A stretch of 64,000 bases of DNA from Escherichia coli (GTDB lineage Bacteria > Pseudomonadota > Gammaproteobacteria > Enterobacterales > Enterobacteriaceae): the NCBI RefSeq assembly GCF_003334335.1, contig NZ_QOWQ01000014.1. One strand, 5' to 3'. The translations under genes and the position numbers were made by a program. Positions 2,473-45,504 of this stretch are shown here, piece by piece. Under the pieces are notes generated by a model that saw only the letters and a list, made by a program, of their open reading frames with translations, had not been told where the DNA came from and searched no databases. Within the stretch, counting starts at the first letter, position 1; each line of letters opens with the position of its first letter.

Positions 2473-3213
2473 ATGCTGCAAAATATTCGAATTGTGCTGG
2501 TGGAGACGTCACACACCGGCAATATGGGTTCTGTTGCCCGTGCCATGAAAACAATGGGATTAACCAATCTGTGGCTGGTTAATCCACTGGTGAAACCCGA
2601 CTCCCAGGCGATTGCCCTGGCAGCAGGGGCCAGCGATGTGATTGGTAATGCTCACATCGTCGATACGCTCGACGAAGCGTTAGCCGGTTGTAGCCTGGTG
2701 GTGGGCACCAGCGCACGTTCCCGCACGCTGCCATGGCCGATGCTCGACCCGCGCGAATGCGGCCTGAAAAGCGTCGCTGAAGCGGCAAATACCCCGGTGG
2801 CGCTGGTGTTTGGTCGCGAGCGCGTCGGCTTGACCAATGAAGAGTTGCAGAAATGCCATTATCATGTCGCGATTGCGGCTAACCCGGAATACAGCTCGCT
2901 GAACCTGGCGATGGCGGTTCAGGTTATTGCCTATGAAGTGCGCATGGCCTGGCTGGCAACTCAGGAAAACGGCGAGCAGGTCGAGCATGAAGAGACGCCG
3001 TATCCGCTGGTCGATGATCTGGAGCGTTTTTATGGTCATCTGGAACAAACGCTGCTGGCAACCGGTTTTATCCGTGAAAACCATCCGGGGCAGGTGATGA
3101 ATAAATTGCGCCGTCTGTTTACCCGTGCGCGCCCGGAAAGCCAGGAGTTGAATATCCTGCGCGGGATTCTGGCTTCTATTGAGCAGCAGAATAAAGGTAA
3201 CAAGGCCGAATAA
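2473..3213 (+). CDS. trmJ: tRNA (cytidine/uridine-2'-O)-methyltransferase TrmJ (SpoU family)
   Basis: ORF 246 aa, [30 protein letters not shown]...; sits directly upstream of the isc operon. Confidence 0.95.
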
Positions 3214-3395
<182 letters not shown>

Positions 3396-3440
3396 CAACA
3401 GGTACAAACGCCACGATAAAAAAATGGCACTGAAGGTTAA

Positions 3441-3490
3441 ATACCCGACTAAATCAGTCAAGTAAATAGTTGACCAATTTACTCGGGAAT
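3441..3490 (+). promoter_or_regulatory. Two adjacent IscR type-1 operator sites in the iscR promoter
   Basis: 3441..3465 atacccgactaaatcagtcaagtaa matches the type-1 consensus ATASYYGACTRwwwYAGTCRRSTAT at about 24 of 25 positions. 3466..3490 atagttgaccaatttactcgggaat is a weaker second copy. Both lie 85-135 bp upstream of the iscR ATG. Confidence 0.6.
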
Positions 3491-3573
3491 GTCAGACTTG
3501 ACCCTGCTATGCAATACCCCCACTTTTACAATAAAAAACCCCGGGCAGGGGCGAGTTTGAGGTGAAGTAAGAC

Positions 3574-4062
3574 ATGAGACTGACATCTAAAGGGCGCTAT
3601 GCCGTGACCGCAATGCTTGACGTTGCGCTCAACTCTGAAGCGGGCCCGGTACCGTTGGCTGATATTTCCGAACGTCAGGGAATTTCCCTTTCTTATCTGG
3701 AACAACTGTTTTCCCGTCTGCGTAAAAATGGTCTGGTTTCCAGCGTACGTGGACCAGGCGGTGGTTATCTGTTAGGCAAAGATGCCAGCAGCATCGCCGT
3801 TGGCGAAGTAATTAGCGCCGTTGACGAATCTGTAGATGCCACCCGTTGTCAGGGTAAAGGCGGCTGCCAGGGCGGCGATAAATGCCTGACCCACGCGCTG
3901 TGGCGTGATTTGAGCGACCGTCTCACCGGTTTTCTCAACAACATTACTTTAGGCGAACTGGTTAATAACCAGGAAGTGCTGGATGTGTCTGGTCGTCAGC
4001 ATACTCACGACGCGCCACGCACCCGCACACAAGACGCGATCGACGTTAAGTTACGCGCTTAA
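3574..4062 (+). CDS. iscR: Fe-S cluster regulator IscR (Rrf2 family)
   Basis: ORF 162 aa, [65 protein letters not shown]... Confidence 0.97.
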
Positions 4063-4173
4063 TAAAAAGAATTCAGAATCAGGCCGGAGTGCTAAATACT
4101 CCGTAAACACGGTCGTACATCCAGCCGGTAGCCTGATTCCTTGCATTGAGTGATGTACGGAGTTTATAGAGCA

Positions 4174-5388
4174 ATGAAATTACCGATTTATCTCGACTAC
4201 TCCGCAACCACGCCGGTGGACCCGCGTGTTGCCGAGAAAATGATGCAGTTTATGACGATGGACGGAACCTTTGGTAACCCGGCCTCCCGTTCTCACCGTT
4301 TCGGCTGGCAGGCTGAAGAAGCGGTAGATATCGCCCGTAATCAGATTGCCGATCTGGTCGGCGCTGATCCGCGTGAAATCGTCTTTACCTCTGGTGCAAC
4401 CGAATCTGACAACCTGGCGATCAAAGGTGCAGCCAACTTTTATCAGAAAAAAGGCAAGCACATCATCACCAGCAAAACCGAACACAAAGCGGTACTGGAT
4501 ACCTGCCGTCAGCTGGAGCGCGAAGGTTTTGAAGTCACCTACCTGGCACCGCAGCGTAACGGCATTATCGACCTGAAAGAACTTGAAGCAGCGATGCGTG
4601 ACGACACCATCCTCGTGTCCATCATGCACGTAAATAACGAAATCGGCGTGGTGCAGGATATCGCGGCTATCGGCGAAATGTGCCGTGCTCGTGGCATTAT
4701 CTATCACGTTGATGCAACCCAGAGCGTGGGTAAACTGCCTATCGACCTGAGCCAGTTGAAAGTTGACCTGATGTCTTTCTCCGGTCACAAAATCTATGGC
4801 CCGAAAGGTATCGGTGCGCTGTATGTACGTCGTAAACCGCGCGTACGCATCGAAGCGCAAATGCACGGCGGCGGTCACGAGCGCGGTATGCGTTCCGGCA
4901 CTCTGCCTGTTCACCAGATCGTCGGAATGGGCGAGGCCTATCGCATCGCAAAAGAAGAGATGGCGACCGAGATGGAACGTCTGCGCGGCCTGCGTAACCG
5001 TCTGTGGAACGGCATCAAAGATATCGAAGAAGTTTACCTGAACGGTGACCTGGAACACGGTGCGCCGAACATTCTCAACGTCAGCTTCAACTACGTTGAA
5101 GGTGAGTCGCTGATTATGGCGCTGAAAGACCTCGCAGTTTCTTCAGGTTCCGCCTGTACGTCAGCAAGCCTCGAACCGTCCTACGTGCTGCGCGCGCTGG
5201 GGCTGAACGACGAGCTGGCACATAGCTCTATCCGTTTCTCTTTAGGTCGTTTTACTACTGAAGAAGAGATCGACTACACCATCGAGTTAGTTCGTAAATC
5301 CATCGGTCGTCTGCGTGACCTTTCTCCGCTGTGGGAAATGTACAAGCAGGGCGTGGATCTGAACAGCATCGAATGGGCTCATCATTAA
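4174..5388 (+). CDS. iscS: Cysteine desulfurase IscS
   Basis: ORF 4150..5388. Start trimmed to ATG at 4174 ([19 protein letters not shown]...) for the 404-aa product. PLP-lysine context [12 protein letters not shown] and active-site SSGSACTS present. Confidence 0.96.
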
Positions 5389-10771: not shown

Positions 10772-11548
10772 ATGTCCGAAACAAAAAACGAACTTGAAGA
10801 CCTGCTGGAAAAAGCAGCAACTGAACCGGCGCACCGCCCGGCCTTTTTCCGTACTCTACTGGAATCCACCGTCTGGGTGCCTGGTACGGCGGCGCAGGGC
10901 GAGGCTGTGGTTGAAGATAGCGCGCTTGATTTACAGCACTGGGAAAAAGAAGACGGCACCAGCGTCATTCCTTTTTTCACCTCGTTAGAAGCACTTCAAC
11001 AGGCGGTTGAAGACGAACAGGCATTTGTCGTAATGCCCGTTCGCACGCTGTTTGAGATGACACTTGGCGAAACGCTCTTCCTTAATGCCAAAATGCCAAC
11101 CGGTAAAGAATTTATGCCGCGTGAAATCAGTTTGTTGATTGGTGAAGAGGGAAATCCGCTGAGCAGCCAGGAAATCCTGGAAGGCGGTGAATCGCTGATA
11201 TTATCGGAAGTCGCAGAGCCGCCAGCACAAATGATTGATTCACTCACCACCTTATTTAAAACCATTAAGCCGGTGAAGCGTGCTTTTATTTGTTCAATTA
11301 AAGAGAACGAAGAGGCACAGCCTAATTTACTTATTGGCATTGAAGCCGATGGTGATATCGAAGAAATTATTCAGGCGACGGGAAGTGTAGCGACCGATAC
11401 ATTACCTGGCGATGAACCAATCGATATTTGTCAGGTGAAAAAAGGGGAAAAAGGAATTAGCCACTTTATTACCGAACATATTGCGCCATTCTATGAACGT
11501 CGCTGGGGTGGTTTTTTGCGTGACTTTAAACAGAATCGGATAATCTAA
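10772..11548 (+). CDS. sseB: SseB (enhanced serine sensitivity protein B)
   Basis: Track ORF starts at GTG 10763. ATG at 10772 gives MSETKNELEDLLEKAATEPAHRPAFFRTL... (258 aa). Confidence 0.9.
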   Translation: MSETKNELEDLLEKAATEPAHRPAFFRTLLESTVWVPGTAAQGEAVVEDSALDLQHWEKEDGTSVIPFFTSLEALQQAVEDEQAFVVMPVRTLFEMTLGETLFLNAKMPTGKEFMPREISLLIGEEGNPLSSQEILEGGESLILSEVAEPPAQMIDSLTTLFKTIKPVKRAFICSIKENEEAQPNLLIGIEADGDIEEIIQATGSVATDTLPGDEPIDICQVKKGEKGISHFITEHIAPFYERRWGGFLRDFKQNRII

Positions 11549-11860
11549 AATATGCCGCCCAAAGGGCGGCATTCGGGCTTACTTGCTGCTCTGAAGGTTG
11601 TTAACCACCAGTAAATTGTCGCCGGAGAGACTCCGGTTATTATTTACCTCGGTTAACAGCGCACCAGAAACAATAAGTACGATACAAAAGCACCGTATCT
11701 TCATTGTGCGGTCCATGCGAAGACCGCATCACGACAGCACCACTGGCGATATTGCCGCGATAGCAAGCGCTGTGAAACACCTGCATTTACGGCCACGGAA
11801 CATCCTTTCCTAAAGCCAGCGCCCGTTTGCGAGACGGCGGAAAGGGCCGCAGTGGATAAT
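11549..11860 (-). ncRNA. ryfA: RyfA-like ~300-nt transcript (small-protein mRNA / sRNA) in the sseB-sseA intergenic region; ends at the hairpin 11554..11570
   Basis: Minus-strand unit inferred from an intrinsic terminator oriented for the minus strand (stem gccgccc/gggcggc at 11554..11570, U-tract given by the complement of 11545..11553), a minus-strand TATTAT -10-like hexamer at 11866..11871 (no convincing -35 found) and the enclosed small ORF. Position matches my recollection of where ryfA lies relative to sseB. Exact ends are uncertain. Confidence 0.45.
11579..11716 (-). CDS. Candidate small membrane protein, 45 codons (41 from the second ATG at 11704): MDRTMKIRCFCIVLIVSGALLTEVNNNRSLSGDNLLVVNNLQSSK; TimP-like type I toxin candidate
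   Basis: Hand translation of the minus strand. Hydrophobic N-terminal segment IRCFCIVLIVSGALL followed by a polar Asn-rich tail. Stop codon lies 8 nt upstream of the terminator hairpin. No strong Shine-Dalgarno sequence seen. Below the ORF track's length cutoff. Confidence 0.4.
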   Translation of the reverse strand: MDRTMKIRCFCIVLIVSGALLTEVNNNRSLSGDNLLVVNNLQSSK

Positions 11861-12027
11861 ACACTAACAGAACAATAATAACTCTCTTTTGCTTGACAAA
11901 AAGAGAGTTACTGGCGAGTATTGTCTCCGCTGAGACGCGCTTGCATTACTACGGTAATACAACCTGCTGGAAAGGCCGCGAACCGGACCAGCAACAAAAA
12001 ACCGCCTGATTTTGGCGGTTTTTTGTT
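11834..12027 (+). ncRNA. sRNA-like module copy 1 (~194 bp): internal inverted repeat around TTGACA, conserved 22-nt box, intrinsic terminator
   Basis: Inverted repeat actctctttt/aaaagagagt flanks gcTTGACA (11893..11898). Conserved box cctgctggaaaggccgcgaacc at 11963..11984. Hairpin aaaaaaccgcc-tgatttt-ggcggtttttt near 11995..12027 with T-tracts on both strands, so strand assignment is tentative. Longest internal ORF is 12 codons. Confidence 0.4.
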
Positions 12028-12155
12028 TTTTAAAGGAAAGTGAATTTACATGTTTAAGTAATATCTTTTACCGGTTAGAATTTTTAATTTTGAGCAGGAT
12101 TTGTTTATATTTGTCTGAATTCGGACTAATAAGCCAGGTTATTTTATTACCGAAC

Positions 12156-12349
12156 ACGGCGGAAAGGGCCGGTGTCGATAATACGCTAAATAAACAATAA
12201 TTACTCTCTTTTGCTTGACAAAAAGAGAGTTACTGGTGAGTATTGTTTTGCTGTGAAGCACCTGCGTTGCTCATGTAACACAAGTCAACCTGCTGGAAAG
12301 GCCGCGAACCAGACTAGCAATAAAAAACCGCCAAATTCGGCGGTTTTTT
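12156..12349 (+). ncRNA. sRNA-like module copy 2 (~194 bp), diverged paralogue of copy 1
   Basis: Same architecture 322 bp downstream: identical start acggcggaaagggcc, same inverted repeat and TTGACA, identical 22-nt box at 12289..12310, terminator aaaaaaccgcc-aaattc-ggcggtttttt at 12322..12349. Central part diverged (roughly 75-80% identity by eye). Longest ORF 14 codons. The terminator also closes sseA on the minus strand. Confidence 0.35.
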
Positions 12350-23900: not shown

Positions 23901-25019
23901 ATGCATAACCAGGCTCCAATTCAACGTAGAAAATCAACACGTATTTACGTTGGGAATGTGCCGATTGGCGATGGTGCTCCCATCGCCGTACAGTCCATGA
24001 CCAATACGCGTACGACAGACGTCGAAGCAACGGTCAATCAAATCAAGGCGCTGGAACGCGTTGGCGCTGATATCGTCCGTGTATCCGTACCGACGATGGA
24101 CGCGGCAGAAGCGTTCAAACTCATCAAACAGCAGGTTAACGTGCCGCTGGTGGCTGACATCCACTTCGACTATCGCATTGCGCTGAAAGTAGCGGAATAC
24201 GGCGTCGATTGTCTGCGTATTAACCCTGGCAATATCGGTAATGAAGAGCGTATTCGCATGGTGGTTGACTGTGCGCGCGATAAAAACATTCCGATCCGTA
24301 TTGGCGTTAACGCCGGATCGCTGGAAAAAGATCTGCAAGAAAAGTATGGCGAACCGACGCCGCAGGCGTTGCTGGAATCTGCCATGCGTCATGTTGATCA
24401 TCTCGATCGCCTGAACTTCGATCAGTTCAAAGTCAGCGTGAAAGCGTCTGACGTCTTCCTCGCTGTTGAGTCTTATCGTTTGCTGGCAAAACAGATCGAT
24501 CAGCCGTTGCATCTGGGGATCACCGAAGCCGGTGGTGCGCGCAGCGGGGCAGTAAAATCCGCCATTGGTTTAGGTCTGCTGCTGTCTGAAGGCATCGGCG
24601 ACACGCTGCGCGTATCGCTGGCGGCCGATCCGGTCGAAGAGATCAAAGTCGGTTTCGATATTTTGAAATCGCTGCGTATCCGTTCGCGAGGGATCAACTT
24701 CATCGCCTGCCCGACCTGTTCGCGTCAGGAATTTGATGTTATCGGTACGGTTAACGCGCTGGAGCAACGCCTGGAAGATATCATCACTCCGATGGACGTT
24801 TCGATTATCGGCTGCGTGGTGAATGGCCCAGGTGAGGCGCTGGTTTCTACACTCGGCGTCACCGGCGGCAACAAGAAAAGCGGCCTCTATGAAGATGGCG
24901 TGCGCAAAGACCGTCTGGACAACAACGATATGATCGACCAGCTGGAAGCACGCATTCGTGCGAAAGCCAGTCAGCTGGACGAAGCGCGTCGAATTGACGT
25001 TCAGCAGGTTGAAAAATAA
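23901..25019 (+). CDS. ispG: HMBPP synthase IspG (GcpE)
   Basis: ORF 372 aa, [36 protein letters not shown]... Confidence 0.97.
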
Positions 25020-25108
25020 TAACGTGATGGGAAGCGCCTCGCTTCCCGTGTATGATTGAACCCGCATGGCTCCCGAAACATTGAGGGAAGCGTTGAGGGT
25101 TCATTTTT
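25020..25108 (+). ncRNA. sroE: SroE-like 3'UTR-derived small RNA candidate between ispG and hisS
   Basis: Stable hairpin gggaagcg-cct-cgcttccc at 25029..25047, and a second stem gaaccc/gggttc followed by atttttat ending near 25108. Positional assignment only. Confidence 0.35.
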
Positions 25109-25129
25109 ATATTCAGAAAGAGAATAAAC

Positions 25130-45459: not shown

Positions 45460-45476
45460 AGAATAAAAATAATTAA

Positions 45477-45504
45477 AGCCGACTTTAAGAGTCGGCTTTT
45501 TTTT
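45477..45504 (+). terminator. Intrinsic terminator/attenuator between upp and uraA
   Basis: agccgact-ttaag-agtcggct followed by tttttttt. Confidence 0.6.

Follow-up and report, generated by a model that had tools for sequence, protein, structure and literature searches.

Two abutting type-1 IscR operators overlie the iscR promoter in an Escherichia coli isc locus

Positions 3441–3490 of the window (the whole 64-kb stretch of Escherichia coli DNA that was analyzed) are occupied by two abutting 25-bp IscR type-1 sites, a promoter-distal site A and a promoter-proximal site B, and we are highly confident that these constitute operators A and B of the E. coli iscR promoter (PiscR), the target of a feedback circuit in which holo-IscR represses its own operon. 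The two sites are unique within the window, lie on the promoter, and are conserved both in sequence and in 25-bp register across the Gammaproteobacteria. The dependence of binding and repression on the iron-sulfur cluster is taken from the literature. The coordinates of the operators and of the associated promoter and coding features are collected in Table 1.

Table 1. Operator, promoter, and coding features at the iscR locus, numbered from the first position of the window.
Feature	Position	Strand	Sequence or basis
IscR type-1 site A (promoter-distal)	3441–3465	not assigned	ATACCCGACTAAATCAGTCAAGTAA; consensus match, position weight matrix, conservation
IscR type-1 site B (promoter-proximal)	3466–3490	+	ATAGTTGACCAATTTACTCGGGAAT; includes the -35 hexamer and the greater part of the spacer
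-35 hexamer of PiscR	3470–3475	+	TTGACC, within the left half-site of site B; 5/6 match
Putative extended -10 element	3490–3498	+	TG-n-CAGACT; hexamer at 3493–3498, 17 bp after the -35 hexamer
iscR coding sequence (162 aa)	3574–4062	+	Open reading frame list; IscR annotation in the identical RefSeq locus

The region is part of the E. coli chromosome, and its annotated neighborhood has the gene order hcaR-hcaT-csiE-yfhR-suhB-trmJ, followed by iscR-iscS-iscU-iscA-hscB-hscA-fdx-iscX-pepB, with trmJ ending at position 3213. The IscR protein encoded in the window is intact and contains the cluster ligands C92, C98, C104, and H107 as well as E43, and the DNA from 3400 to 3580 is base-for-base identical to that of E. 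coli K-12 MG1655. When the 407-bp sequence from 3214 to 3620 was used as a query, a 100% match was found in E. coli strain 300709 and matches were returned from all 5426 complete E. coli genomes. At least 80% of this query was covered in only 1561 of the 5426 genomes, as the REP-containing stretch upstream is variable while the promoter proper is nearly invariant. Identity over the 153-bp promoter segment (3421–3573) reaches 99% or more in 5421 of the 5426 complete genomes; the segment is nearly invariant in 5425, and a single genome lacks a megablast match to it. A preliminary description of this DNA had taken the operators as a sign that the regulatory architecture of the locus is intact. 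This reading stands for iscR itself and for the promoter, which matches MG1655 over 3400–3580, but it needs one qualification, as the regulatory architecture extends beyond these 50 bp, to a reported third site C and to the iscRS stability element.

The variable DNA between trmJ and the iscR promoter (3213–3394) holds two tandem copies, 95% identical, of a 91-nt REP/BIME unit, and Rfam places an naRNA4 call at 3275–3346. Closer to the operators, one natural variant was encountered. The blood isolate E. coli strain 27992 (NZ_CP195627.1) carries a 44-bp deletion equivalent to positions 3404–3447 of the window, by which the first 7 bp of site A (ATACCCG) are lost while site B and the promoter remain intact. 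This strain offers a ready-made test of the importance of site A.

Type I sites are defined in the literature by TTGAC/CCGAC half-sites, and the type-1 consensus is quoted as ATASYYGACTRWWWYAGTCRRSTAT (PMC6599224, PMC3899308). Both sites match this consensus across its 25 bp, site A at 24 positions with a single mismatch and site B at 22 positions with three. The preliminary description had placed two adjacent 25-bp sites upstream of iscR and credited the first with about 24 of 25 matching positions; its coordinates prove to be exact, as does the count. If both strands of the 64-kb window are searched allowing up to three mismatches, sites A and B are the sole matches, and 100 dinucleotide-preserving shuffles searched at the same threshold gave none at all (mean 0.00, maximum 0), so that none is expected by chance. 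Relative to the iscR ATG at 3574, site A begins 133 nt and site B 108 nt upstream, and the pair covers the interval from 133 to 84 nt before the start codon. Within site A, the half-sites are CCGAC on the plus strand (3445–3449) and TTGAC on the minus strand (3457–3461), flanked by ATA and TAA. Within site B, they are TTGAC on the plus strand (3470–3474) and CCGAG, with one mismatch, on the minus strand (3482–3486), flanked by ATA and AAT. Site A is therefore inverted relative to site B. A search of literature text for the exact site sequences returned only the consensus string, in papers on Pseudomonas.

The sequences behind the consensus presumably came from the promoters of iscR, erpA, and nfuA in E. 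coli and its relatives. They include these two sites and their orthologues, and a match of the E. coli iscR sites to the consensus is consequently in part circular. This circularity is the one consideration that favors regarding the two matches as chance occurrences in AT-rich intergenic DNA. The motif was also obtained independently. To collect iscR loci, with each species represented by a single genome, a degenerate DNA pattern encoding the conserved N-terminal peptide served as the query, which contains no operator information. Of the 120 loci obtained, 112 provided 250 nt of usable upstream sequence, and the addition of the window resulted in a set of 113. A consensus score of at least 20 of 25 was reached in 100 of these 113 upstream regions, compared with 2 of 1990 control stretches of 250 bp drawn at random from these loci. 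A Gibbs sampler was then run from random starts and with no prior on the 95 iscR upstream regions from outside the Enterobacterales, and it recovered the motif ATACTTGACTAAATTAGTCGGGTAT (26 bits), in essence a reproduction of the published type-1 motif. When the window was scanned with the resulting position weight matrix (PWM), site B ranked first, with 36.5 bits on the plus strand, and site A second, with 34.5 bits on the minus strand and 19.9 bits on the plus strand, a preference that agrees with the order of its half-sites. The third-ranked position in the window reached 8.3 bits, leaving a gap of more than 25 bits below the two sites. Across 200 dinucleotide-resampled windows, the maximum PWM score averaged 9.4 bits (sd 2.9), and the highest value was 23.9 bits. 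The comparison of a PWM scan with a shuffled control, which had been proposed beforehand as the way to check these sites, thus came out decisively in their favor. As a motif derived from other orders ranks both sites on top, the concern about circularity is removed. Against chance there also stand the absence of any match in all 100 shuffles, the size of the PWM gap, the resampled maximum, and the conservation of the sites across orders, and we regard a chance origin as vanishingly improbable.

One further position was considered as a third type-1 site and was rejected. The sequence at 45475–45499 (AAAGCCGACTTTAAGAGTCGGCTTT) scores 7.2 bits, which is within the range of the shuffles, and forms a perfect palindrome with a GC stem, more suggestive of a bidirectional terminator hairpin than of an IscR site.

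The position of the operators relative to the transcription start was estimated from hexamer geometry. The hexamer CAGACT matches the -10 consensus at three of six positions and is preceded by TGn, from which we infer a weak extended -10 promoter with transcription starting near 3506 (±2). A generic sigma-70 promoter scan of positions 3150–4250 called no promoter. The tool requires at least four of six matching positions in the -10 hexamer, which explains why PiscR was missed, and the null scan was rejected as evidence against a promoter, since the conserved TGnCAGACT block is consistent with an extended -10 element of the weak kind. If transcription starts near 3506, site B would extend from approximately -40 to -16 and site A from approximately -65 to -41, in agreement with the positions of about -65/-41 (A) and -40/-16 (B) reportedly assigned to the sites of E. 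coli PiscR. These predicted positions closely parallel those of the footprinted tandem sites of Pseudomonas aeruginosa, in which site A covers -67 to -43 and site B -42 to -18 (PMC6599224). The operator overlaps the core promoter, with its predicted start site, of an operon that is led by the intact gene for its regulator. The region also contains a 16-nt inverted repeat of 81% complementarity (3492–3507 and 3545–3560) that pairs the -10/start region with sequence beyond a hairpin in the 5' untranslated region (UTR); with a start near 3506, the upstream arm of this repeat would be mostly untranscribed.

The overlap with the promoter raises the question of whether the conserved DNA is core promoter only, that is, a -35 element with an AT-rich UP element whose likeness to the IscR motif is incidental. 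TTGAC serves alike as a type-1 half-site and as the -35 consensus, the AT-rich flanks are UP-like, and site B could owe part of its conservation to the -35 element instead of to IscR binding. However, the conservation seen at TTGAC extends equally to the half-sites that have no role in the promoter (AGTCGGG/CCGAC) and to the dyad symmetry, and site A, which is located upstream of the -35 hexamer, still scores 34.5 bits. In addition, control regions of the same loci almost never reach such scores, and direct binding of a 30-mer containing site B has been published (PMC12594620). Because conservation and high scores also characterize the non-promoter half-sites and site A in its entirety, this explanation fails, and we judge it very improbable.

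Published work bears directly on the reading of the two sites as IscR operators. The type-1 motifs of the isc promoter are bound specifically by [2Fe-2S]-IscR, resulting in negative autoregulation (PMC12594620, PMC3899308), and the isc operon is repressed by cluster-bearing IscR and not by apo-IscR (PMC12594620). With a PiscR-lacZ reporter, [2Fe-2S]-IscR gave 32-fold repression, whereas IscR(C92A) gave none (PMC12594620). The 30-mer probe iscRB (AAATAGTTGACCATTTTACTCGGGAATGTC) was bound by reduced [2Fe-2S]-IscR with a Kd of approximately 22 nM and by the oxidized form with a Kd above 1000 nM (PMC12594620). This probe is identical to positions 3464–3493 of the window at 29 of 30 bases, and site B lies inside it. 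The single difference is at 3477, where the probe in the Methods of PMC12594620 has GACCATTTTAC and both the window and MG1655 have GACCAATTTAC; it is either a typographical error in that paper or a deliberate change. With the E. coli isc operon, an intact iscR, and published autoregulation by [2Fe-2S]-IscR through type-1 motifs, the earlier assignment of the pair to the autoregulatory circuit of the isc operon is well supported.

On this basis, a [2Fe-2S]-IscR dimer would occupy each of the 25-bp pseudo-palindromes, the dimer on site B covering the -35 TTGACC and the spacer and the dimer on site A covering the adjoining upstream region that would be contacted as an alpha-CTD/UP element. Occupancy by IscR is expected to exclude RNA polymerase and thereby repress iscRSUA-hscBA-fdx-iscX. 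Steric occlusion is suggested here by the position of the sites; in the literature, it has been shown by modelling for type-2 promoters only. As IscR acquires its cluster from the Isc machinery that it represses, the arrangement would form a negative feedback loop. If the demand for Fe-S clusters rises, or if the cluster of IscR is oxidized or lost, binding to the type-1 sites would fail and the operon would be derepressed.

Conservation was followed from the Enterobacterales to the Gammaproteobacteria at large. When 16 Enterobacterales were aligned, site A, site B, and a GAATG(T/A)CAGACTT block stood out as conserved islands, and the sequence downstream diverged fast; GTTGAC is invariant in all 16. 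Scanning with the de novo PWM identified at least one site of at least 12 bits in 108 of the 113 iscR upstream regions and at least two sites in 53, so that sites of this type are conserved in orthologous iscR promoters. The promoter-proximal site is on the plus strand in 103 of 108 species. Among the adjacent site pairs in Gammaproteobacteria, 42 of 57 are exactly 25 bp apart and hence abutting. The orientation of the upstream site in these abutting pairs is direct in 25 (++) and inverted in 17 (-+), E. coli being among the latter. The upstream site is inverted in Escherichia, Citrobacter, Vibrio, and Aeromonas and direct in Yersinia and Shewanella. Other arrangements occur in two genera. In three loci of Pseudoalteromonas, three strong type-1 sites are separated by gaps of 38–39 bp and 66–89 bp between neighbors, and in two loci of Colwellia, a pair of sites with a spacing of 55 bp lies 174–231 nt upstream of the ATG; none of these loci shows the 25-bp abutment.

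The frequency of exact abutment could suggest that A and B form one composite 50-bp operator bound cooperatively by two contacting IscR dimers, with the 25-bp register reflecting the contact between dimers. The 42 of 57 pairs in this register favor such an arrangement, as does the report that binding to site B of P. aeruginosa appears to promote binding to the weaker site A (PMC6599224). On the other hand, site A varies in orientation, with 25 direct and 17 inverted cases, and approximately half of the species have only one recognizable site. Moreover, in the E. coli model as described in PMC6599224, IscR binds site A or site B independently. We therefore consider a single composite operator quite unlikely and retain the reading of A and B as two abutting type-1 operators. 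A related proposal, that the strict 25-bp abutment combined with an upstream site that flips between lineages marks a functional dimer-dimer contact or a constraint on DNA shape at the A/B junction, is doubtful as well. If true, such a contact or constraint would be undescribed for E. coli, in which binding is reported to be independent.

Additional IscR sites were sought in the window. Three IscR sites are reported for E. coli PiscR, of which site C is minor and non-conserved (PMC6599224, PMC3899308). Site C could not be located by motif, as no position from 3491 to 3550 scored above 3 bits with the type-1 PWM. The sequence ATACCCCCACTTTTACAATAAAAAA (3514–3538) resembles one half-site only, and a link to site C would be speculation. 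IscR type-2 sites, such as those of hyaA, sufA, and ydiU, resemble type-1 sites in being recognized by the same regulator, in length, in their AT-rich flanks, and in often overlapping the -35 element, but they differ in having CCxYA half-sites and in being bound by apo-IscR. The type-2 consensus AWARCCCYTSNGTTTGMNGKKKTKWA had no match with up to three mismatches in the 64-kb window, and the two sites do not belong to this type.

Comparison with characterized promoters places the window with E. coli K-12. The sequence is identical over 3400–3580 and the gene context is the same, so that no difference from the K-12 sites is detectable. Sites A and B of K-12 PiscR were reportedly described as type-1 sites by Giel et al. 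in 2006 and 2013. The PiscR of P. aeruginosa likewise has two abutting 25-bp type-1 sites over the promoter, with TTGAC in the proximal site B (PMC6599224, PMC3899308), which overlaps the -35/-10 region (PMC6599224). By hand count, site B of the window is identical to the footprinted site B of P. aeruginosa at 20 of 25 positions. In P. aeruginosa, site A is weak (68% consensus match), site B is primary, and cooperativity is possible (PMC6599224), whereas the E. coli site A surpasses site B in its match to the consensus (24/25), and IscR is reported to bind the two E. coli sites independently (PMC6599224).

The E. coli iscR 5' UTR is approximately 40 nt longer than that of P. aeruginosa. It contains a segment of approximately 41 nt that was found only in the Escherichia/Citrobacter/Enterobacter/Klebsiella group, and within this segment an A-run is followed by a GC hairpin (CCCCGGGCAGGGG, 3539–3551) whose stem is maintained in that group and which has a terminator-like score on the minus strand. 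Downstream of iscR, the intergenic region before iscS contains the iscRS stability element (Rfam RF01517, 138 bits) at 4063–4172, a post-transcriptional layer of isc regulation that was absent from the preliminary description. Elsewhere in the window, Rfam matches at gathering level were obtained for the sRNAs ryfA (11547–11850, minus strand), IS128 (11982–12190, minus strand), and sroE (25019–25110, plus strand).

Sites A and B of E. coli PiscR are already known, they are present here in wild-type sequence, and there is no sign of an unrecognized feature at 3441–3490. The window thus carries the textbook feedback circuit of Fe-S homeostasis in its wild-type form, which is useful for annotation and adds nothing new biologically. 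The minor additions are the flipped site A, the 44-bp deletion in one strain, and the conserved 5'-UTR hairpin. The frequency of the tandem register, the lineage-specific orientation of site A, and the natural truncation of site A are small refinements toward understanding why two sites exist.
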